Positions 1-9,093 of a stretch of 9,093 nucleotides of DNA are shown here, one piece after another. Numbering within the stretch: position 1 is the stretch's first letter; every line of letters starts with the position of its first letter. Origin of the DNA: a virus (Duplodnaviria; Heunggongvirae; Uroviricota; Caudoviricetes); the IMG/VR virus record IMGVR_UViG_2529293223_000005; one strand, given 5' to 3'. The translations under genes and the position numbers were made by a program. The notes under the pieces were generated by a model. It did no database searches and had not been told where the DNA came from. It was given only the letters and a program-made list of their open reading frames with translations.

Positions 1-939
1 TTATTTGATTTCAATTTTGTCCCACTCCCTGCCTCTGTCATCACGATACTGTGATGCCATGGTGTCCGACTTGTGCCCGAGAAGATGTTGAGCAAACTTA
101 TCGCTTATCTGCTTCTCATAGAGTCTTGCAGACAAATTGCGCAACTCGTGAAAGGTAGGTGGATCCCCTTCGAAGGAAAGACCTGATGCTTTTCGTGCGC
201 GCATAAAATACCTTGATACTGTGCCGGATGAAAGCGGTTCACGACGAGTAGATGCAATTATGGTTTCTCCGCCAAGAATCTCTTTGCATTTATCAAGTGT
301 TTCCTTCATTGATATCCCGAGAGCATCAACATGCAATGTTGTAGGGATGGCAATTTTTACGCCTGTTTTGCTTTGCTCGACATAAAGATATCCATCTACG
401 ATATCAGACCACTTCATTTCGCATAAATCACCAACTCGTTGCCCGGTAACAACAGCCAGTTCCATTGCAAGTCTGAGCCAACATGGTGATGATTCTGCTG
501 CTTGATAAATTTTCAGGTATTCGTCAGCCGTAAGTCTTGATCTCCTTACCTCTGATTTTGCTGCGCGAGTGGCAGCGACCGGGTTTGTTGTTATATGGCC
601 TTCAGCTATTGCCTCTCGGAATGCATCGCTCAGTGTTGATCTGATTAACTTGGCTGATGCCGCCTTGCCCTCGTCTATGTATCCATTGAGCATTGCCGCA
701 ATTTCTTTTGTGGTGATGTCTTCAAGTGGAGCATCAGGCAGCCCCCTCCTTATTGCTTTAATTTTGCTCATGTAATTTATGAGTGTCTTCTGCTTGATTC
801 CTCTGCTGGCGAGGATTTTTTCGTAGCGATCAAGCCATGAATGTAACGTAACAGAATTATCACTGTTGATTCTCGCTGTCAGAGGCTTGTGTTTGTGTCC
901 TGAAAATAACTCAATGTTGGCCTGTATAGCTTCAGTGAT
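1..939 (-). pseudogene. int: Lambda-type tyrosine integrase (Int), 5'-truncated; codons for about residues 45-356 present, N-terminal ~44 codons missing at the IS911 junction
   Basis: Minus-strand translation ends ...HLLGHKSDTMASQYRDDRGREWDKIEIK, which I recognise as the lambda Int C-terminus including the catalytic Tyr region. The reading frame continues in frame upstream of the tracked Met (ITEAIQANIELFSGHKHKPLTARINSDNSVTLHSWLDRYEKILASRGIKQKTLINY) to position 939, where the IS911 terminal repeat begins. Stop codon at 1-3. Confidence 0.9.
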
Positions 940-1011
940 TGAAGTGGCACACTGAATTTGGCCACCTGAACAGAGGTGATATGCTCACCTCAGAACAACA
1001 CAGGTGTTCCA

Positions 1012-2180
<1,169 letters not shown>

Positions 2181-2255
2181 CCACTTCAGATTGAGGTAGC
2201 CTGAGTTTAACGGACACTCCTTCCTGAAATAGAATGGCATCAGAAGGAGCTAATA

Positions 2256-2558
2256 ATGAGCAGAAAAACCCAACGTTACTCTAAAGAGTTCAAAGCCGAA
2301 GCTGTCAGAACGGTTCTTGAAAATCAACTTTCGATCAGTGAAGGCGCTTCCCGATTATCCCTTCCTGAAGGCACTTTAGGACAATGGGTTACCGCCGCCA
2401 GAAAAGGGCTCGGTACTCCTGGTTCCCGCACGGTGGCTGAACTGGAATCTGAAATTCTGCAACTGCGTAAGGCGTTAAATGAAGCTCGCCTTGAGCGAGA
2501 TATATTAAAAAAAGCAACAGCGTATTTTGCACAGGAGTCGCTGAAAAATACGCGTTAA
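2256..2558 (+). CDS. IS600 OrfA (HTH transposase N-terminal protein)
   Basis: 100-aa ORF MSRKTQRYSKEFKAEAVRTVLENQLSISEGASRLSLPEGTLGQWV...ERDILKKATAYFAQESLKNTR. RBS AGGAG lies 7 nt upstream. A7G slippery run at 2507-2514. Confidence 0.85.
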   Translation: MSRKTQRYSKEFKAEAVRTVLENQLSISEGASRLSLPEGTLGQWVTAARKGLGTPGSRTVAELESEILQLRKALNEARLERDILKKATAYFAQESLKNTR

Positions 2559-2593
2559 TCGAACAATGGCGACAACAATTTCCCATTGAAGCG

Positions 2594-3412
2594 ATGTGTC
2601 AGGTATTTGGTGTATCCAGGAGCGGTTATTACAACCGGGTACAGCATGAACCCTCAGACAGAAAACAAAGTGATGAGCGGCTAAAACTGGAGATTAAGGT
2701 GGCACATATCCGCACTCGCGAAACATATGGAACCCGGCGGCTCCAGACGGAGCTGGCAGAGAATGGCATCATCGTTGGTCGTGACCGACTGGCACGTCTT
2801 CGTAAGGAGCTAAGGCTACGCTGTAAGCAGAAACGCAAGTTCAGAGCGACTACGAACCCGAACCACAATCTGCCAGTTGCGCCAAATCTGCTGAACCAGA
2901 CGTTCGCTCCTACAGCACCAAATCAGGTCTGGGTGGCGGACCTGACGTATGTTGCCACACAGGAGGGATGGTTGTACCTCGCTGGCATCAAAGATGTTTA
3001 TACGTGCGAAATTGTCGGCTACGCCATGGGAGAGCGCATGACAAAAGAGCTGACAGGTAAAGCCCTGTTTATGGCGCTCAGGAGCCAGCGCCCACCTGCC
3101 GGGCTAATCCACCACTCTGATCGAGGTTCACAGTACTGCGCATACGATTACCGGGTCATACAGGAGCAGTTTGGTCTGAAAACATCAATGTCGCGTAAAG
3201 GTAACTGTTACGACAACGCTCCGATGGAAAGCTTCTGGGGAACGCTGAAAAATGAGAGCCTGAGCCACTATCGTTTTAATAACCGGGATGAAGCCATCTC
3301 AGTAATACGGGAATACATTGAGATTTTCTACAATCGTCAGCGTCGTCACTCTCGTCTGGGGAATATCTCCCCGGCAGCCTTCAGGGAAAAATATCATCAG
3401 ATTGCTGCTTAA
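2594..3412 (+). CDS. IS600 OrfB (DDE transposase catalytic domain), expressed as OrfAB by -1 frameshift
   Basis: 272-aa ORF with IS3-family transposase motifs (..HHSDRGSQYCA.., ..RKGNCYDNAPMESFW..), in the -1 frame relative to orfA. Confidence 0.85.
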   Translation: MCQVFGVSRSGYYNRVQHEPSDRKQSDERLKLEIKVAHIRTRETYGTRRLQTELAENGIIVGRDRLARLRKELRLRCKQKRKFRATTNPNHNLPVAPNLLNQTFAPTAPNQVWVADLTYVATQEGWLYLAGIKDVYTCEIVGYAMGERMTKELTGKALFMALRSQRPPAGLIHHSDRGSQYCAYDYRVIQEQFGLKTSMSRKGNCYDNAPMESFWGTLKNESLSHYRFNNRDEAISVIREYIEIFYNRQRRHSRLGNISPAAFREKYHQIAA

Positions 3413-3535: not shown

Positions 3536-3817
3536 TCAGAAAGGACAGGGGGAGAATTTTCTCTCCCATTCTTCTTCCGCCCGAGCATAGGCGATCGCTG
3601 AGATATAATCGTTGTACGCCTCTTCAGCTTTTTCGCCAGTGAGTGCCAGTTGGGCTTCTTTGGGTAAAAAAAGGCTGCTCATAAGCAATGGTTTATCGGG
3701 GAACATGCTGATAAGCTCCTGCGCCCGATCATCAATCCATTTATCCTTTTCATCCTGAATATGCTGATTAACCCAGCGACGCTCCTCTATGCGGTCGCAG
3801 GTGAGGTATGCGTTCAT
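3536..3817 (-). CDS. Small acidic protein, candidate Gam-like host-nuclease (RecBCD) inhibitor
   Basis: 93 aa with AGGAG 7 nt upstream of the ATG. The N-terminus MNAYLTCDRIEERRW resembles the start of the short form of lambda Gam (MNAYYIQDRLEAQSW) as I recall it; size and operon position fit. Similarity fades after about 25 residues, so the call is tentative. Confidence 0.45.
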   Translation of the reverse strand: MNAYLTCDRIEERRWVNQHIQDEKDKWIDDRAQELISMFPDKPLLMSSLFLPKEAQLALTGEKAEEAYNDYISAIAYARAEEEWERKFSPCPF

Positions 3818-4130: not shown

Positions 4131-4343
4131 TCAGGCTGGTGAGATTAACGGTTGGCCTTTATGGTTCAGGTAAACTTCGATTGCATCTGAAATAATGCGG
4201 ATTTTTTCAATCAGTGAATGTGCGTAAAGTGCATTATTAACGTTAGCTGACGCCATGTAATAACGCCCGTTGTAAAGAATTGCTGTACCGGGTTTAACGT
4301 CCTCGCGAGAAACTAATGCGGTTCCGTAGTGAGGTTTGAGCAT
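4131..4343 (-). CDS. Hypothetical small protein (70 aa)
   Basis: ORF with a strong RBS (GGAGGA about 7 nt upstream of the ATG). Follows a structured intergenic hairpin. No family recognised. Confidence 0.5.
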   Translation of the reverse strand: MLKPHYGTALVSREDVKPGTAILYNGRYYMASANVNNALYAHSLIEKIRIISDAIEVYLNHKGQPLISPA

Positions 4344-4413: not shown

Positions 4414-4701
4414 TTAAAGATTAACGTTGAAACCAAAGCGGGAAGACTTTTCCGATGTGCGGGAAATATCCAGCAATTTACGGCGCATTTCTTCCGTCAG
4501 ATGCTTGAAGGCGTTAAATTCGGCGACAGCCGCATCGACGTTATAGCCGTTACGACGTAATTCATTAAATATGCGCATTGCAGGGCTTGGCATGTCGAAT
4601 AAGACGGAGGTATCAAGCTGCAATGTATTTCTATCAACATAGTTCATCGTGGCATAGGGGTGATGCTCTGAAAACCACGATAAAGGGAAATTGATATTCA
4701 T
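4414..4701 (-). CDS. Hypothetical small protein (95 aa), start uncertain
   Basis: ORF between the Rha-like gene and the hairpin. No convincing Shine-Dalgarno before either candidate ATG (4701 or 4647). No family recognised. Confidence 0.4.
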   Translation of the reverse strand: MNINFPLSWFSEHHPYATMNYVDRNTLQLDTSVLFDMPSPAMRIFNELRRNGYNVDAAVAEFNAFKHLTEEMRRKLLDISRTSEKSSRFGFNVNL

Positions 4702-4734
4702 CGCAGGAGAAGACAGGGCCAGTTGTTTCTGTTC

Positions 4735-5052
4735 CTATAGTTGTTTTTCCATGCGATCGAATTCAGCAATGTAGGCTTCCTTGAATGCAGCTGCTTTTTT
4801 GCCGGTGAAGCCCATCACCAGAAAAACGAAGCCGTTTTTGGTGATTTGGTAGGCGTTATAGGTATTGCCTCGGTGTTCGAATTTAACCCGCGAAAAGTTG
4901 CGGGTTAAGAATTGCTCAGAGCATTCGAGGGATTCTATTTTCTGAACAACATGGTGATGCTGCTTGCCAAAAAACTCAGCAATCGAAATAGAAGTAGTGA
5001 CGGCGCGACCATTTTCGATGGTTACGTCAGGGTGAGAAAGGGTAGTAGCCAT
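4735..5052 (-). CDS. Rha-family phage regulatory protein (Phage_pRha-like domain)
   Basis: The C-terminal half (ISIAEFFGKQHHHVVQKIESL...YQITKNGFVFLVMGFTGKKAAAFKEAYIAEFDRMEKQL) fits the Rha-family pattern as I remember it (FGK.H.NVLR.I, L.MGFTG.KA..FKEAYI..F..ME). The likely start is the internal ATG at 5050-5052 (MATTLSHPD...), which has GAGGA 7 nt upstream. The ORF-track start at 5211 has no RBS and would overlap the terminator. Confidence 0.7.
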   Translation of the reverse strand: MATTLSHPDVTIENGRAVTTSISIAEFFGKQHHHVVQKIESLECSEQFLTRNFSRVKFEHRGNTYNAYQITKNGFVFLVMGFTGKKAAAFKEAYIAEFDRMEKQL

Positions 5053-5216
5053 AATGACATCCTCAAGTGATAAGTTAATTAACTCACCACCAGAGGTGCT
5101 AATCTCATGGGTGGTGAGACGCACAGGGTTAGCACTACCGGTCACTCGAGAACCCGGCCAGCCTTGCGGCTGCCCCGCACGCCTCACCATAATTTGAATG
5201 TGGCTGTGCATTACGC

Positions 5217-5241
5217 ATAAAAAAACCGCTTCAGCGCGGTT
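5217..5241 (-). terminator. Intrinsic terminator on the leftward (minus-strand) transcript
   Basis: The minus-strand RNA reads AACCGC-GCUGAA-GCGGUU followed by UUUUUUUAU (plus-strand A-run at 5219-5225). It lies about 165 nt upstream of the Rha-like start and is directly preceded on the same transcript by a second GC-rich hairpin at 5262-5281. Confidence 0.5.
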
Positions 5242-5599
5242 ATGCGCTCGAGTAACTTTCGGGGTGCTAATCCCGGCACCCGTTTTATGAGGTGTTCGCC
5301 AAATATAGCCCCGACATCACACGCAGTCAATATCGTCCTTTCTCGGAAATGCTTTGGCGGTGCCGCCTGCACCCCAAAACATTCCCTGTATTGGTCAGCG
5401 CCAACTTCCTGCCAGTGTTGCCCGTTCTCACGCCGTTCTCGCTCTCGCGCGGGGATACTCTCTCATCGACCGGATCGCACCCGATGATACAGCACGTTTA
5501 CGTGTAGGGGTCTAAACAGGTCATTGACGCTGTAAAGCTCCAGATTGTTAAAGAGCATTTTGCGGCGGGTTAAGTCGCGCCGTACGACTGATTTATGTA

Positions 5600-5614
5600 G
5601 CCCTGTGTCAGGGC
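5600..5614 (-). promoter_or_regulatory. boxB-like RNA hairpin (candidate nutL-type site) on the leftward leader
   Basis: Minus-strand RNA GCCCU-GACAC-AGGGC has the same 5-bp stem as lambda boxB (GCCCU-GAAAA/GAAGA-AGGGC) with a pentaloop. It lies 15-30 nt downstream of the candidate leftward promoter. A boxA-like GCUCUUUAA occurs about 45 nt further downstream (plus 5548-5556). Confidence 0.35.
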
Positions 5615-5637
5615 GCGATGTTTCTGGCTTGGGTAAA

Positions 5638-5666
5638 ATATAATAAGCGCAACTGACCGCAGTCAA
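5638..5666 (-). promoter_or_regulatory. Candidate leftward early promoter (pL-like) with a possible overlapping operator
   Basis: On the minus strand: TTGACT (plus 5661-5666), 17-nt spacer, TTATAT (plus 5638-5643). The adjacent AATAGCAAGGCTAATA shares the 6/7-mers AATAGC and GCTAATA with the cI-cro intergenic region (7695-7734), which would fit a shared CI operator half-site. An AT-rich tract lies upstream. Confidence 0.3.
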
Positions 5667-5895
5667 TAGCAAGGCTAATAATTTAATTTTAATCTATGTG
5701 ATTGATTTTTAGATTAATTTATTTATGTAAAAAATATAAGCGAGGATAATGCAGGTGGTGAGTTATGGAGGATGCGCAAAGAAAAACCGGCGCTGAGGCC
5801 GGTTACTCTGTGTTAGATTTGGTGTGAGGGAACCCCCTGATAACACTAAGAAAAGCAGTGAACAGTCAAAGAGAACCCAGCGGGCTTGGTGGCTT

Positions 5896-5924
5896 TTGAC
5901 AAAAACATCGCCTGTAACTATAAT
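5896..5924 (+). promoter_or_regulatory. Consensus sigma70 promoter upstream of hicA, with overlapping palindrome
   Basis: TTGACA (5896-5901), 17-bp spacer, TATAAT (5919-5924): a perfect match to consensus. The -10 sits inside the palindrome AACTA-TAAT-TAGTT (5916-5929), followed by TTGCAA, a plausible autoregulatory operator. Confidence 0.6.
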
Positions 5925-5953
5925 TAGTTGCAATGTAGCGAAGATGAGATTAT

Positions 5954-6208
5954 GTGGGTATGGGGAAAGCAGATAAGCTACTGGAAAAGTTTTTAAACAG
6001 TAAAAAAACGTTTGAATGGGATGAGTTGGTCGTTTTGTTTTCCTCTCTGGGATATGTCAAAAAGGAAATGCAGGGCTCAAGAGTGCGGTTTTTCAATGCT
6101 GAAATCAACCACACCATATTAATGCATCGCCCACATCCAGAAAGTTATATTAAAGGTGGAACGCTGAAAGCGATTAAACAGAATCTGAAAGAGGCTGGGG
6201 TATTATGA
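5954..6208 (+). CDS. hicA: HicA-family toxin (type II toxin-antitoxin, mRNA interferase-like)
   Basis: 84-aa ORF (GTG start at 5954, or ATG at 5960). The layout ...WDELVVLFSSLGY...GSRVRF...MHRPHP...GTLKAIKQNLKEAGVL fits the HicA/YcfA family pattern. The stop overlaps the next ORF's start (ATGA at 6205-6208), and toxin-first order is the usual HicAB arrangement. Confidence 0.7.
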   Translation: MGMGKADKLLEKFLNSKKTFEWDELVVLFSSLGYVKKEMQGSRVRFFNAEINHTILMHRPHPESYIKGGTLKAIKQNLKEAGVL

Positions 6209-6549
6209 ATCATCTAAAATATAAAGGATATTTAGGTACAGTAGAACCAGATTTTGAAAATAATATCCTGTACGGAAAACTGGCGTTTATTCGAGACCTG
6301 GTAACTTATGAGGCTTCTACATTAGCTGAACTGGAACAGGAGTTTAAGACATCGGTTGAGCTGTATTTACAGTCTTGTGTGGAGGATGGAAAGGAGCCTG
6401 ATACCCCGTTTAAAGGTGTGTTTAACGTCAGACTTGATCCAGAACTGCATCGTCGGGTCGCTGAAATGGCGATGGAAGAAGATTTATCACTGAACGCCTT
6501 TGTTAATAAGGCGCTGGAAAAAGAAGTCAACCATCACACAGGGGCTTAA
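6205..6549 (+). CDS. hicB: HicB-family antitoxin (RNase H-like fold N-domain plus C-terminal ribbon-helix-helix DNA-binding tail)
   Basis: 114 aa. MNHLKYKGYLGTVEPDFENNILYGKLAFIRDLVTYEASTLAELEQEFKTSVELYL...PFKGVFNVRLDPELHRRVAEMAMEEDLSLNAFVNKALEKEV matches the HicB pattern (Y.GY.G.VE.D...G.......E..T..EL...F...V..YL; NVR+.PELH...A..A.....SLN.FV...L). Translationally coupled to hicA. Confidence 0.75.
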   Translation: MNHLKYKGYLGTVEPDFENNILYGKLAFIRDLVTYEASTLAELEQEFKTSVELYLQSCVEDGKEPDTPFKGVFNVRLDPELHRRVAEMAMEEDLSLNAFVNKALEKEVNHHTGA

Positions 6550-6636
6550 TGTTCCCTTCGTCTTTGACATCCTCACCGCCGAAGAATGGGGAATTTACGG
6601 CGCACTGGTAAATGGTGGGGCGAGCAGGAGGCAAAC

Positions 6637-6665
6637 AAAACCCGGCACCAAGGCCGGGTTTTGTT
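6637..6665. terminator. Bidirectional intrinsic terminator between the convergent hicAB and cI units
   Basis: AAAA-CCCGGC-ACCAAG-GCCGGG-TTTTGTT: a perfect 6-bp GC stem flanked by an A-run and a T-run, so it reads as a terminator in both directions. About 90 nt downstream of the hicB stop. Confidence 0.7.
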
Positions 6666-6703
6666 ATTGGTGCATTTGGCAGGTTGTAATATCTGGTCCA
6701 TAA

Positions 6704-6735
6704 GCCAAAGTAAAAACAGGCTTGTTGATCAAGCC
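6704..6735 (-). terminator. Candidate intrinsic terminator for the cI transcript
   Basis: Minus-strand RNA GGCUUG-AUCAA-CAAGCC followed by UGUUUUUACUUU, about 200 nt downstream of the cI stop. Confidence 0.35.
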
Positions 6736-6936
6736 CATGTTCTTTAATGATTGAATCATTTTTCCTTGCTAAGTATTTCTTCCACTTGTTGTGTCAAGGA
6801 TTTGTCTTTGTTCATTTATGGCTCACTTGATTGCGACTGCTCCCCGCCCGCATTGGGCGAGGGTTCTCGGAGATTTTTCGCTGAAAAAGGAAATAAAATA
6901 GCCTCCCTGCAAGGTTATTGATATCATCCTGTGAGT

Positions 6937-7656
6937 TCAATCAAAAGTCTCATCATTCCACTGCGACTTTATGACCTTTCCGACAAACTGGCAGTTTTCG
7001 TTACACTCAATCATGTCGAATCGTGGGTTGAGTGGCTCCAGGTACGCTTTACCGCTCTCACGAATGAATCGTTTGAAGGTGAATTCATCGCCATTCATTC
7101 GGGCCACGCAAAAATCGCCATCCTCAATCTCCCGCTCAGGGTCAACGAGTATCAGCATCCCTTCGGGGAAACTGGGTTTACCACCCTGCGGCGCGGTCAT
7201 TGAATGCCCCTTGACCTCCAGCCAGAACGACCTGTCACTGGCTTTTGTGGTGGTGGAGATCCACTTAATCGCATCCTTTGCGGTGTACGAAAAATCATCC
7301 ATTGAGAAAGCTCCAGCCTGTACGCAGGAGAGTAACGGATATTCGTAATATTTCTCGAACAGGTTACGCCTGTTTCCCGGTGTGTGGGTACGAATACTGC
7401 GTAACAAATCACTCAGATCTGGATTAATTTCTTCCGCAGGAACCTGTAATAAAGCCGCAAACTTAAGGGTATTTTCAGTATTTAACGCAATTTTTGCGTT
7501 CAATAACTGACTAACAGCCCCCTGCGTTTTGAAGCCGAGGATATCTGCGGCTTTTTCCTGGCTTAGGGATAGCTGTTTCCGTTTTTCATCCCAGATTTTG
7601 CGCAGTCGTTCAGCGTTCTGGATGTCTTTGTCAGTAATTGTAATTTTCTTCGTCAT
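6937..7656 (-). CDS. cI: Lambda CI-like prophage repressor (N-terminal HTH domain plus C-terminal S24 LexA-like autopeptidase domain)
   Basis: The C-terminal half ([91 protein letters not shown]) is close to lambda CI as I recall it, including the Ser (GHSMTAP) and Lys (FTFKRF) catalytic dyad and an Ala-Gly cleavage site (VQAGAF). The N-terminal HTH domain is diverged. Start taken at ATG 7654-7656 (MTKKITIT...) with GGAGG 7 nt upstream; the ORF-track start at 7695 is an upstream extension. Confidence 0.9.
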
Positions 7657-7707
7657 AGTGCCTCCAATTTTATTAGCAACACAAATACTTATCAAATAGC
7701 TAGCCTG

Positions 7708-7735
7708 TTGACATTTAAATCAGGTAAGCTAATAT
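7708..7735 (+). promoter_or_regulatory. PR-like promoter for the Cro-like gene, within the cI-cro divergent control region
   Basis: TTGACA (7708-7713), 16-bp spacer, TAATAT (7730-7735), then GGAGG (7751-7755) and ATG at 7762. The region carries the palindromes TAGCTA/GCTAGC and ATTTAAAT, and AGCTAGCCTG / CAGGTAAGCT flank the -35. A weak-consensus candidate PRM (TAATAA -10) lies on the minus strand at about 7663-7700. Operators were not resolved. Confidence 0.5.
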
Positions 7736-7761
7736 CGGAAAATTGAAATGGGAGGATCTCT

Positions 7762-8001
7762 ATGACTCTTGACGAGTACTTGAGACAAAGCTCTATCAGA
7801 CAAGCCGATTTTGCGGCGATTGTTGGAGTTTCTCAGGGATTTGTCAGTGGGGGTATTACAGGGAGATACATGCCTCAGGGGCGGAAAGCCATTGAATGGG
7901 CAAAAGCTACAGACTGGAATGTAACTCCCCATGAACTAAACCCGCATGACTACCTAAACATGGAAGATGGTATTCCGCTTCATGTAAGGCAAACAGCCTG
8001 A
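7762..8001 (+). CDS. Cro-like HTH DNA-binding protein (Cro/C1-type), assigned by position and HTH motif
   Basis: 79-aa ORF divergent from cI, with a strong RBS and a helix-turn-helix signature (SIRQADFAAIVGVSQGFVSG). Confidence 0.6.
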   Translation: MTLDEYLRQSSIRQADFAAIVGVSQGFVSGGITGRYMPQGRKAIEWAKATDWNVTPHELNPHDYLNMEDGIPLHVRQTA

Positions 8002-8023: not shown

Positions 8024-8305
8024 GTGAACAGGCAAATCAAAACGGTTATGCCCGATCAGTACTGTGATGCTGATCGGGACTGGATACAGGAGCAATTGTT
8101 ACAGCTAGACCCGACCACCAGGGTAAAAATTGCAGCAGAGTACGCGAGAGTGTACCAGGAAGAGTGGGACAAGGAGCCTGTATCGTTCAGGAAGGGCAAC
8201 AGGGCAAGACGGAGCGCCAACACCCGGTTACGGGTGTATGTCCAGAAGTACGCGAGAGCCAGCCGTGGCTGGATGCTTTCGCCAGTAGCGATACGGAAGG
8301 AATAG
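8024..8305 (+). CDS. Hypothetical basic protein in the cII position (93 aa, GTG start)
   Basis: ORF starts 22 nt after the cro-like stop with GGAGG 5 nt upstream of the GTG. Arg/Lys-rich C-terminus (FRKGNRARRSANTRLRVYVQKYARASRGW). No similarity to lambda CII recognised. The RBS is half of a small inverted repeat (CCTCC-ATC-GGAGG at 8006-8018). Confidence 0.5.
   Translation: MNRQIKTVMPDQYCDADRDWIQEQLLQLDPTTRVKIAAEYARVYQEEWDKEPVSFRKGNRARRSANTRLRVYVQKYARASRGWMLSPVAIRKE

Positions 8306-8718: not shown

Positions 8719-9093
<375 letters not shown>

Follow-up and report, generated by a model that had tools for sequence, protein, structure and literature searches.

IsrK and C4 small RNAs and a conserved boxA-containing folded leader in the early-left region of a Shiga-toxin-type prophage

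Many lambdoid phages carry no recognisable N gene and, to our knowledge, their passage of early terminators is unexplained. For one N-less phage, a 2025 survey ventured the guess "perhaps put-like" (PMC12315714). The same question is raised by a 9,093-nt stretch of viral DNA (the window), in which the initial annotation described one leftward leader of ~740 bp, poor in ORFs, with nut-like RNA elements and a terminator before a Rha-like gene, and with no N-like gene. This gene-poor stretch is the control region for early-left transcription in a Shiga-toxin-type prophage, a defective lambdoid one of the Oslovirus / Stx-phage type. The described features are present, near the positions given for them, but they are split into two separate units and the view of a single leader does not hold. 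One unit is already known and consists of IsrK and C4, small RNAs gating an anti-repressor gene; the other, apparently undescribed, is a widely conserved leader made of an rrn-type boxA and a ~115-nt folded RNA. We regard it as an even question whether these are two nested leftward units, the IsrK-C4-ant switch and a pL leader acting as a cis signal for elongation control. The known unit contains the following features.

5302..5330, minus strand: isrK promoter, TTGACT-17-TATATT, sigma70-like, predicted from sequence
5219..5295, minus strand: IsrK sRNA, two 5' hairpins, then terminator hairpin 5241-5224 and U7
5107..5194, minus strand: C4-type antisense RNA (RF01695), equivalent of Gifsy-1 STnc1160 and P1 c4
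5040..5106, minus strand: anti-repressor translation-initiation region, with C4 target repeats AUUAGCACC and CACUUGAGG, SD GAGGA and AUG at 5052
4735..5052, minus strand: N-terminal part of the Rha-family anti-repressor gene (PHROGs match)
4414-4701: C-terminal part of the anti-repressor, a separate ORF

The tandem hairpins and strong terminator that had been read as leader elements exist, but they are the IsrK sRNA gene. In particular, the segment matches Rfam model RF01394 over its full length (model positions 1-77; 61.6 bits, gathering score 50), and the intrinsic terminator placed at 5217-5241 is a stem (5241-5224) followed by U7. The ~580 nt once taken as one leader contain a second sigma70-like promoter (5330-5302), whose predicted start at ~5295 is position 1 of the Rfam match; this predicted promoter and the Rho-independent terminator frame a discrete RNA of ~77 nt. 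Moreover, isrK is annotated in Stx2 phage F039 and has an Rfam match in Lyz12581Vzw, and its synteny is preserved in the window, with the C4 RNA (5194-5107) downstream and then the Rha/anti-repressor ORF (5052-4735). The isrK of Gifsy-1 also has its own promoter, and partial read-through of its terminator has been published (PMC4825925). The idea of regulated read-through before the anti-repressor gene therefore stands, but the terminator is not simply part of the pL leader; it belongs to a separately promoted sRNA gene. The hairpins and terminator, which the initial annotation stressed most, are accordingly an already catalogued sRNA pair. Among the candidates it had offered (a put-like RNA, a trans-acting antiterminator or an sRNA), the sRNA is right for the tandem hairpins, and the put-like RNA survives only as an analogy. 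Plus-strand termination at 5262-5281 is poorly supported; this is the second IsrK hairpin, followed only by GTTTTATG, a weak signal, and no credible plus-strand gene was found upstream for it to terminate.

The 165 nt placed before the Rha-like start in the initial annotation hold the C4 antisense RNA (full-length match to RF01695, model positions 1-87; 78.6 bits, gathering score 45), with the start codon at 5052 rather than 5211. C4 is also found in two relatives, F039 (annotated) and Lyz12581Vzw (Rfam match). Its loops are complementary to both the IsrK middle and the anti-repressor RBS region: the C4:RBS duplex has an energy of -45.1 kcal/mol, compared to -34.7 +/- 4.6 in shuffles (reached by 3 of 300), and the IsrK:C4 duplex one of -58.1 kcal/mol, with one of 300 shuffles as good. 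Further, cognate IsrK:C4 pairs are ~10 kcal/mol more stable than cross-type pairs, and F039 carries its own versions of the target repeats in the matching region, so that antisense and targets co-vary between two phage types. The read-through RNA (5296-5040) folds with a z of -5.45, and in the predicted fold the IsrK middle pairs with the C4 loops, as in the Gifsy-1 "structure A" (PMC4825925). The anti-repressor itself matches phrog_995, phrog_518 (Rha-like) and anti-repressor families (best E = 6e-59), and a single 215-aa protein of F039 spans both window ORFs. The other early-left ORFs of the window fall, by PHROGs, into Kil, gam-like or unknown families. The split anti-repressor gene and IS insertions mark this prophage as decayed, and an IS element at ~3412 truncates its early-left operon.

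This IsrK-C4-Rha arrangement is the Gifsy-1 IsrK / P1 c4-ant switch. By the logic of P1 c4/ant and Gifsy-1 IsrK/orf45/AnrP, the promoter at 5330-5302, constitutive or conditional, would yield IsrK (5295-5219); most of its transcripts would end at the IsrK terminator, and the remainder would run through C4 into the Rha-family anti-repressor gene. The anti-repressor RBS would be kept shut by C4 loops pairing with its repeats, and IsrK, bearing the same repeats, would titrate C4 or refold the long transcript. In P1 and P7, immI comprises the c4 antisense RNA, icd and ant, and its P4 counterpart is seqA-CI-seqC. The window resembles immI in having a C4-family RNA whose loops match repeats upstream (in IsrK) and at the anti-repressor RBS, and in the co-variation of antisense and targets between phage types; unlike in P1/P7, the target copy lying upstream is an sRNA with a promoter and terminator of its own. 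The P4 parallel has been noted for the Gifsy-1 locus, isrK-orf45(STnc1160)-anrP (Hershko-Shalev et al. 2016, PMC4825925), with which the window shares the order of promoter, ~77-nt IsrK and terminator, C4-like RNA and Rha/anti-repressor gene, as well as the long-range pairing of the IsrK middle with downstream RNA. Unlike Gifsy-1, the window has the pL leader rather than a Q-like antQ gene as upstream neighbour, a small upstream ORF in frame with the anti-repressor rather than a separate 45-codon ORF, and an anti-repressor gene in two parts; isrJ gave no match there.

The second unit begins at the early-left promoter and contains the following features; R1 is the covariance model of boxA plus the structured core.

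5637..5666, minus strand: candidate pL, -35 TTGACT at 5666-5661, 18-nt spacer, -10 TATATT at 5642-5637, start ~5630
5600..5614, minus strand: "boxB-like" hairpin GCCCU-GACAC-AGGGC, exact pattern, on the pL transcript
5563..5582, minus strand: predicted short hairpin GGCGC...CGCCG, ending 6 nt 5' of boxA, the rrn boxB position
5545..5556, minus strand: boxA, rrn-type, GCUCUUUAACAA, exact
5405..5557, minus strand: full R1 match (170.7 bits, E = 3e-35), the sole match in the window
5408..5520, minus strand: conserved structured RNA core, ~115 nt, with four stem regions, three of them hairpins
5520-5515 with 5413-5408, minus strand: core stem P1 (RNAalifold)
5509-5507 with 5423-5421, minus strand: core stem P1b (RNAalifold)
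5504-5501 with 5496-5493, minus strand: core stem P2 (RNAalifold)
5487-5481 with 5469-5463, plus 5479-5478 with 5472-5471, minus strand: core stem P3 (RNAalifold)
5452-5450 with 5435-5433, minus strand: outer core stem P4 (by eye from the alignment)
5449-5447 with 5442-5440, minus strand: inner core stem P4, GAGA loop (RNAalifold)

The candidate leftward promoter of the initial annotation is borne out as a sigma70-like TTGACT-18-TATATT at 5666-5637 (10/12 in a consensus scan), and its -35 and -10 align with pL inside the annotated phi80 O-L region and with the TTTACA-17-TATATT promoter of P13374. Homology to phages of other immunity types ends where the -10 hexamer lies (5643). The candidate pL region is shared with Lyz12581Vzw, whose cI is 99% identical to the window's; an operator search of O-R against the region upstream of pL gave only a weak shared motif, AATAGC(N)AG(G/C)C. 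The boxA-like sequence is better than claimed: GCUCUUUAACAA equals the rrn boxA at 12 of 12 positions, is the sole exact match in the window, and fits the published consensus GYTCTTTAANA (bioRxiv 10.1101/091223). A boxA is present in all ten BLAST-derived homologous leaders, a set not selected for it, and the consensus boxA occurs only once in 38 kb of Lyz12581Vzw and only once in the whole HK225 genome. In about half of the family (phi80 type), position 4 is U instead of C; this C is critical according to the Wade laboratory (bioRxiv 10.1101/091223). No GU-rich boxC (UGUGUGGG-like) occurs in the sequence within 40 nt after boxA. A short hairpin of different sequence occupies the place of 5563-5582 in most other leader types, including phi80 (GGCGGAC/GUCGCC), L163 (GGCGG/CCGCC), L246 (GCCAGAC/GUCAGGC) and Edno5 (GAGAC/GUCUC).

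Of all the elements here, the covarying ~115-nt structure (5520-5408) is the most interesting, and it had been overlooked. The initial annotation had proposed looking for compensatory changes among related leaders; these are present, but in this core. In a 30-sequence MAFFT alignment, which was not fitted to the structure, 93.6% of cells pair, compared to 85.6% in shuffles and 30-41% with slid partners, and 14 pairs are compensatory, a level reached by none of 500 shuffles; covariation thus holds there too. When the 65 distinct sequences are aligned to the model, 97.1% of cells pair and compensatory changes occur at 18 of the 28 pairs, again matched by 0 of 500 shuffles, with slid controls at 30-48%. 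The core fold is specific to the leftward transcript, because many of its pairs are G-U. The element alone is thermodynamically ordinary (z = +0.56), a local ACAG/CUGU hairpin could compete with its closing helix P1, and its single-stranded stretches GCGAUCCGG, GCGUGAGAAC and CAACACUG are strongly conserved. The sequence shows no terminator or U-run after the core structure, and the region 5280-5960 has no Rfam match at E <= 10. The judgement that the leader holds no convincing ORF also stands. The sole ORF overlapping the conserved part, a possible missed small basic protein across boxA (window MLFNNLELYSVNDLFRPLHVNVLYHRVRSGR; with an Arg-rich extension in phi80), looks coding-like when just two sequences are compared (5 third-, 3 first- and 0 second-position changes), but was rejected because its frame is not conserved: across the 65 distinct sequences it ends after 10-50 codons by indels or stops, and two of its "synonymous" changes compensate each other in stem P3.

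In each of 100 loci (65 distinct sequences), R1 finds exactly one full-length element, always directly after the repressor gene and the early-left promoter. Among the carriers are phi80, HK225 and the Stx2a phages from O104:H4 and O145, and the same placement just downstream of the repressor gene is found in HK225, KO-TP1, Edno5 and e14-like prophages; the e14-like variant is confined to few genomes, with none detected in standard K-12, and laboratory strains with phi80 fragments (DH5alpha, DH10B) carry the element. In phi80, the leader from pL to "N" (GenBank X13065) is a true homologue in the same position after O-L/pL: window 5370-5557 and phi80 893-1080, which lies between the annotated O-L region and the first early-left gene, are 94% identical over 188 nt, and the phi80 element has an R1 score of 174 bits. 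Unlike the window, where isrK-C4-ant is next, the phi80 leader runs into "N", and its boxA has the U at position 4. A search for literature on phi80 with nutL or boxA found nothing relevant. HK225 (complete genome) and Lyz12581Vzw (38 kb, both early operons) each have one R1 copy, in the early-left leader, and no second, rightward (nutR-like) copy. The majority of homologues were collected with a pattern scan in which TTTAACAA and GCGATCCGG were obligatory, so the conservation of these two segments is partly ascertainment; the pattern TTTAACAAN{55,85}GCGATCCGG was effective on viral contigs and too loose on genome contigs, where nearly all 120 loci were chance.

What surrounds the element is far from constant. 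The first ORF downstream belongs to more than 30 unrelated families, at distances from 5 to >800 nt. By contrast with the antisense strand (10 of 64), a strong sense-strand intrinsic terminator lies within 2 kb in 55 of 64 distinct downstream contexts. What this analysis establishes is the identity of IsrK and C4, the boxA, the covarying fold, its constant position and single copy, the variable neighbours and the downstream terminators; promoter use, Nus loading and antitermination itself are the parts we infer. Most likely, the leader would act in cis to recruit host Nus factors, such that only pL-initiated transcription would read through. In this mechanism, the repressor-controlled pL (5666-5637) would make a long untranslated leader which, ~75 nt in, presents the short hairpin and rrn-consensus boxA and then the ~115-nt core. 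The boxA would load host NusB/NusE, and hence the Nus complex, onto polymerase started at pL, and the folded RNA would stabilise or complete the polymerase modification. Transcripts from pL would then resist Rho across >400 nt of untranslated RNA and pass the IsrK and later terminators into kil, gam, recombination genes and int/xis, while polymerases from the isrK promoter, without the signal, would stop at the IsrK terminator. Since only pL transcripts would carry the signal, the IsrK terminator would act differently on transcripts from the two promoters.

In its strongest form, the claim is that boxA and the folded leader are a third phage signal for processive antitermination beside N/nut and put, acting in cis with host factors only, through an rrn-like Nus complex that the folded RNA would hold or extend, and making pL polymerase resistant to both Rho and intrinsic terminators; we put this forward tentatively, at somewhat less than an even chance. 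An rrn-type Nus complex is known mainly for countering Rho rather than strong intrinsic terminators, so boxA alone may not explain passage of the IsrK terminator. A conserved, covarying RNA with a perfect boxA lies at the expected position for such a signal, in ~100 loci that include medically important Stx2a phages, and the leader may explain terminator read-through without an N protein in Stx-type phages. If true, this would supply the early antitermination mechanism so far missing for lambdoid phages that lack N, among them the Stx2a phages from the O104:H4 and O145 outbreak strains, and the leader would set a promoter-specific read-through of the IsrK terminator. The element could also affect the ease of phage induction, because early-left transcription precedes and feeds induction; the inputs from this operon are the anti-repressor, Kil, recombination genes and excision.

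Known signals share parts of this design. Like the rrn and CRISPR BoxA (PMC7665894; bioRxiv 10.1101/091223), the element has a consensus boxA that comes right after a short hairpin, early in a long untranslated transcript, and protection from Rho by BoxA and Nus factors is described for such long untranslated RNAs, namely rRNA and CRISPR arrays (PMC7665894). Unlike the rrn leader, it has no GU-rich boxC and has a conserved folded RNA instead, in a phage early operon. Like HK022 put (PMC9378689), it is a folded nascent early-leader RNA of an N-less lambdoid phage, with the same proposed role in cis without a phage protein; put, however, is ~70 nt with two stems, putL starting from +3 of the transcript (PMC9378689), and has left and right copies and no boxA, whereas the window's element has a boxA and four stem regions, is single-copy, and lies ~110 nt past the start. 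Homology to put was rejected: R1 has no match in the HK022 early region (filters off, E up to 10), and the HK022 pL-nun leader, read directly, has no resemblance to the element and no boxA. Like lambda nutL and nutR, the element is a promoter-proximal RNA signal with a boxA in a terminator-containing early operon. Unlike them, it has no N and no boxB-type pentaloop hairpin 3' of boxA, is present once and in the left operon only, and is a multi-helix RNA of ~115 nt rather than a 15-nt hairpin; its boxA is the rrn consensus, of which that of lambda is a weaker version.

A phage protein could nevertheless take part. In that case the element would be a classical nut site, its boxA and folded RNA recognised by a divergent, small or elsewhere-encoded N-like antiterminator, which we consider unlikely. 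All nut sites contain boxA, and the element shares it and lies where a nutL would, between pL and the first early-left gene. Several proteins are conceivable partners: the first early-left gene of phi80 was called N by its sequencers; an Arg-rich protein (MNSRQRRAMRYRAS...) like the P22 N RNA-binding arm is encoded two genes downstream of the element in Edno5 and L174; and a small basic phrog_852 protein (window 8024-8305) follows cro in 23 element loci. With such candidates in some carriers (phi80 "N", Edno5), a protein partner may yet be involved. Each was rejected as a conserved partner, none being shared across the element loci. Homologues of the phi80 "N" occur in just 6 of 107 loci, and its PHROG has no assigned function; the P22-N-like arm is found only in Edno5 and L174, and the phrog_852 protein is missing from phi80 and HK225. 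The lambda N and Nun proteins have no match across the 107 loci, and tblastn with lambda N, P22 gp24 and Nun found none in the window or the Oslovirus loci, in agreement with the earlier description of a leftward early leader without an N-like gene. Moreover, an N-like gene is neither annotated nor detected in complete HK225 or in the ~38 kb of Lyz12581Vzw that cover both early operons, the nutR-like second copy was not found in either, and the RNA is near-constant while its neighbours change.

About equally improbable, in our estimate, is that the folded leader has a job other than antitermination, as an attenuator or riboswitch-like sensor, a suhB-like BoxA/Nus repressor, an RNase platform or a stable-RNA precursor. 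The lambda N leader is a region of translational and RNase III control. At suhB, BoxA and Nus factors repress rather than activate expression, through Rho (bioRxiv 10.1101/091223). The conserved single-stranded stretches named above resemble binding sites for something, and two other RNAs of this operon are processed or regulatory. Such roles are countered by the missing terminator or U-run after the structure and by the lack of a fixed adjacent start codon; the variable distance and differing genes downstream make direct translational control of one gene unlikely, and the frequent strong terminators downstream pose a need for read-through that a role other than antitermination leaves unexplained.

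The initial annotation had instead seen a lambda-type boxB in the hairpin GCCCU-GACAC-AGGGC, forming with boxA a nut site in rrn order that governs the terminator at 5217-5241. This is very improbable. The sequence is there at 5600-5614, on the pL transcript upstream of boxA, with a stem identical to that of lambda boxB and a pattern rare in shuffles (2 of 200), and the hairpin is predicted to form, appearing in the MFE fold of 5632-5557 (z = -1.64, not significant). As a conserved boxB it fails: it is limited to the Oslovirus-type leader, shows no covariation, is absent from phi80, HK225 and e14-like leaders, and in most relatives has the loop UACAC rather than GACAC. The GNRA-like fold of lambda boxB needs a 3' A in the loop, which is lacking here. 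Further, the stem sits 44 nt 5' of boxA, not 3' as in nut; the rrn boxB position beside boxA is occupied by the other hairpin (5582-5563); and no N or Arg-rich partner is present. The lambda-like hairpin is lineage-specific and probably not a boxB. Least credible of all, and close to negligible, is that everything apart from IsrK and C4 is non-functional spacer from mosaic recombination; the prophage is decayed and homology breakpoints flank the element, but the element is ~94% conserved across phages sharing nothing else nearby, keeps its place and orientation, and covaries in both alignments.

Terminator-like sites are frequent around this region, with 10 in 4900-7800 compared to 3.3 +/- 2.2 in shuffles. 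Upstream of pL, the features are as follows.

5776..5865, minus strand: remnant of a displaced upstream moron, comprising its 3' end and intrinsic terminator (stem 5804-5785 and U-run)
5896..5924, plus strand: rightward hicAB promoter, consensus sigma70, TTGACA-17-TATAAT, 12/12
5954-6208, plus strand: hicA, matching RefSeq annotations
6205-6549, plus strand: hicB, matching RefSeq annotations

In F039 and Lyz12581Vzw, the sequence of 5776-5865 is the end of a partner gene in a Panacea/SocA toxin-antitoxin pair, and homology to both phages stops at 5865. The hicAB promoter falls inside the ~740 bp of the initial annotation and outside the leftward system.

The gap from hicA to the anti-repressor gene, the region under study, lies in the early-left arm of a decayed lambdoid prophage with the following layout.

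1-771, minus strand: integrase
976-3412: two IS elements
3536-3817, minus strand: gam-like gene
4131-4343, minus strand: kil
4735-5052 and 4414-4701, minus strand: Rha/anti-repressor gene, in two ORFs
5954-6549, plus strand: hicAB
6937-7695, minus strand: LexA-type cI
7762-8001, plus strand: cro-like gene
From 8755 on: further IS copy

Upstream of isrK, BLAST homology falls into nested blocks. The widest, 5296-5865, is shared at ~96% identity by the Stx2a phages of the Lyz12581Vzw group; a shorter one, 5296-5643, reaches ~97% identity in many further Oslovirus Stx phages (P13374 (O104:H4), PA2, VT2phi_272, phi191 and Ss-VASD). The innermost, a core at 5370-5557, extends to phi80, HK225 and Klebsiella phage KO-TP1 at 94% identity; Edwardsiella phage Edno5 and e14-like prophages match it less well. 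In the phi80 record, the core follows the annotated O-L region and precedes the first early-left gene; in HK225 it sits directly past an annotated leftward promoter, and in six more loci a few hundred bases beyond the end of the LexA-family repressor gene. The homology break at 5643 falls on the -10 hexamer of the candidate early-left promoter (pL; 5666-5637, minus strand), consistent with a common leader to which an immunity-specific promoter and operator have been attached. Further, the -35 and -10 hexamers align with those of phi80 pL, and Lyz12581Vzw, with which the window shares the promoter region, has a cI with 99% identity to the window's. The placement of a candidate leftward early promoter at about 5638-5666 in the initial annotation is therefore well supported by homology.

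At the boxA-like sequence previously noticed on the leftward transcript, the window reads GCUCUUUAACAA, which agrees exactly with the rrn consensus and with GYTCTTTAANA; boxA is present in all 10 BLAST-derived homologues. A pattern scan of viral contigs added ~90 further loci, all selected for the two required motifs, TTTAACAA and GCGATCCGG. From 22 sequences, RNAalifold predicts a closing helix (P1) that pairs CUGUU past boxA with GGCAG ~100 nt further 3′, together with a CCC/GGG helix and hairpins P2, P3 and P4, and finds compensatory changes in 13 of 24 pairs. The outer P4 stem was added by hand, and pairs were then counted on two alignments: 30 sequences aligned by MAFFT, and 65 distinct sequences aligned to R1, a covariance model of boxA plus the structured core, to which this second alignment is fitted. 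On the MAFFT alignment, 93.6% of cells are paired (85.6% in shuffles and 30-41% with partners slid), 14 pairs are changed on both sides (7.0 in shuffles; reached in 0/500), and the covariation score is 0.299 (0.166 in shuffles); on the R1 alignment, the respective values are 97.1% (90.4% and 30-48%), 18 of 28 pairs (0/500) and 0.251 (0.133 in shuffles and ≤0.077 when slid). Comparison with related leaders, as initially proposed, thus reveals compensatory changes, and these concern the core. For example, P3 reads CAUCGG/UCGAUG in the window, CACCGG/UCGGUG in phi80, and CACCAG/UUGGUG or CGCCAA/UUGGCG elsewhere; the inner P4 stem varies among CGC-GAGA-GCG, CAC-GAGA-GUG, CAU-GAGA-AUG and CCC-GAGA-GGG; and P1 is CUGUU/GGCAG versus GUAAC/GUUAC in Edno5. 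Four pairs are mostly G-U, making the fold specific to the leftward transcript. The isolated element is thermodynamically unexceptional (z = +0.56). Altogether, the element is almost certainly a genuine structured RNA.

About half of the element family (L003, L004 and many phi80-type viral loci) carries GCUUUUUAACAA, with U at boxA position 4, where C is reported to be critical for Nus factor binding (bioRxiv 10.1101/091223), and a few members carry GCUUCUUUAACAA or GCUAUUUAACAA; these variants may reflect graded Nus affinity or a different reader of the motif. The element is also present on the phi80 fragment of the cloning strains NEB5-alpha, XL10-Gold, DH10B, DH5a and HST04. In most leader types, a short hairpin of differing sequence lies directly 5′ of boxA (5582-5563 in the window), as it does in rrn leaders. 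The GCCCU/AGGGC hairpin that had been likened to lambda boxB is present farther upstream (5600-5614), but it is limited to the Oslovirus leader and its loop is UACAC in most relatives. R1 and the consensus boxA each occur once in the entire HK225 genome and once in the 38 kb of Lyz12581Vzw that cover its two early operons, and R1 has one copy per locus.

The first ORF past the element belongs to more than 30 unrelated families, at a distance of 5 to >800 nt. Consistent with the initial statement that no N-like gene accompanies this leader, lambda N and Nun are found in none of the 107 loci, phi80 "N" (a PHROG of unknown function) is found in 6 of 107, and an Arg-rich protein resembling P22 N is confined to Edno5 and L174. 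Strong intrinsic terminators lie within 2 kb on the sense strand in 55 of 64 distinct contexts (median 496 nt), compared to 10 of 64 on the antisense strand; the window's downstream sense terminator is that of IsrK. The leader is a conserved, covarying, strand-specific RNA with a consensus boxA, at a fixed site at the head of early-left operons, with no fixed protein neighbour and with terminators downstream.

The chances that this leader is an antitermination signal appear roughly even. Following the model of boxA loading of NusB/NusE on rRNA and CRISPR leaders (PMC7665894), it would modify polymerase started at pL via NusB/NusE loading at boxA, and the folded RNA would add stability or terminator resistance. 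Over the >400 nt of untranslated RNA, transcripts from pL would then be protected from Rho, and they would get past the IsrK terminator; polymerase from the isrK promoter, lacking the signal, would mostly stop and yield short IsrK. However, complexes of the rrn type act mainly against Rho. In addition, boxA of the phi80 type carries U in place of the critical consensus C, and boxA can repress, as at suhB (bioRxiv 10.1101/091223). A phage factor could also take part in the effect. The HK022 put-like RNA suggested initially is apt only as an analogy, the element being unrelated to put: R1 has no match in the early region of HK022, whose pL leader lacks boxA and does not resemble the element. A coding role is dismissed because the small ORF over boxA is not conserved among relatives.

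IsrK and C4 are known already. The leader has a homologue in the pL leader of phi80, whose sequence dates from the 1980s, and signals of the boxA type are long established. The folded element is not described as a family in Rfam (a permissive scan of 5280-5960 was empty) or in the searchable literature, beyond whose reach lie key older papers. How N-less lambdoid phages achieve read-through is still guessed at (PMC12315714). Separately, a 93-aa protein encoded after cro (8024-8305) is rich in Arg over one stretch, RKGNRARRSANTRLRVYVQKYARASR, and is assigned to phrog_852, a family of unknown function; other element-bearing prophages with a different immunity have homologues of it (44-47% identity), and none was found in phi80 or HK225. 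In Edno5, an internal start within gp49 (L007 1581-1901) opens a sequence, MNSRQRRAMRYRAS..., that is similar to the arm with which P22 N binds RNA; it may be an unannotated N-like antiterminator in an element-bearing phage.

Only two Rfam families match the window at gathering threshold, both at full length and both on the minus strand.

5295-5219, minus strand: isrK (RF01394), 61.6 bits against a gathering score of 50
5194-5107, minus strand: C4 antisense RNA (RF01695), 78.6 bits against a gathering score of 45
5330-5302, minus strand: isrK promoter, sigma70-like TTGACT-17-TATATT, start predicted at the first nucleotide of the isrK match
5241-5224, minus strand: stem of the IsrK terminator, followed by U7

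The Rfam search recommended for the leader's minus strand thus accounts for the tandem hairpins and strong terminator: they are present, but belong to the known IsrK sRNA with its own candidate promoter. Both RNAs are annotated in Stx2 phage F039 and found in Lyz12581Vzw. In Gifsy-1, isrK has its own promoter, and a fraction of transcripts runs past the IsrK terminator to include orf45 and anrP, the anti-repressor gene; this long RNA is not translated, because the middle of IsrK is paired with downstream RNA, and short IsrK opens it in trans. The authors of that study pointed out the likeness to P4 seqA/CI (PMC4825925). The window retains this logic in its long RNA fold and its IsrK:C4 and C4:RBS pairing. 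In particular, RNA 5296-5040 folds with -106.9 kcal/mol (z = -5.45), with predicted pairing of the C4 loops to the middle of IsrK. Shuffles match or beat the IsrK:C4 duplex in 1/300 trials and the C4:RBS duplex in 3/300. Moreover, from the window (UUAGCACC and CUCGAG-type) to F039 (UUAGGACC and CAAUCGAGG-type), the repeats of IsrK, of the C4 loops and of the anti-repressor RBS change in step, and cognate pairs are ~10 kcal/mol more stable than cross pairs. The IsrK/C4 part thus adds a member to a system already described.

Directly past the IsrK terminator, a 158-aa ORF from ATG 5211 runs in frame through the entire C4 into the anti-repressor ORF, and F039 has a similar in-frame extension although its C4 sequence differs; the ORF may be a counterpart of Gifsy-1 orf45 (translational coupling) or due to chance. 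A perfect 12-nt inverted repeat (TAACTCACCACC/GGTGGTGAGTTA; 5080-5091 and 5754-5765) has one arm in the anti-repressor leader beside the C4 target and the other upstream of pL; its significance is marginal, since chance alone would give ~0.2 such pairs in the region searched. In Lyz12581Vzw, Rfam also matches STnc100 (9629-9830), just past the stx genes in their direction of transcription, and two sRNA-Xcc1 copies (32765-32853 and 33304-33389) among distal anti-repressor genes of the early-left operon.

Past the gam-like gene, two different IS3-family elements lie side by side (976-3412) and have removed the recombination genes that relatives have. A near-identical copy of the first (8755-9093) interrupts the rightward operon; direct IS copies thus flank the immunity region, and the prophage is defective. 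A single 215-aa protein in F039 spans both ORFs of the Rha/anti-repressor gene (4414-5052), and the window's split copy is thus probably a pseudogene or truncated variant. The slot from cI to pL serves as an exchange site for morons (window 5866-6665 versus L001 5550-9000 and Lyz12581Vzw 18103-21553). There, near relatives whose cI is the same have genes on the opposite strand for a methyltransferase, a restriction enzyme and a Panacea/SocA pair; in place of this moron and restriction-modification system the window has hicAB, with a perfect sigma70 promoter (5896-5924). The leftover end and terminator of the Panacea/SocA toxin-antitoxin moron remain at 5785-5865, within a relic of 90 bp (5776-5865). 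Finally, the interval from hicB to the 3′ side of cI contains a perfect 13-bp inverted repeat, AACAAAACCCGGC/GCCGGGTTTTGTT, at 6634-6665, with T-runs on both strands, which resembles a bidirectional terminator.
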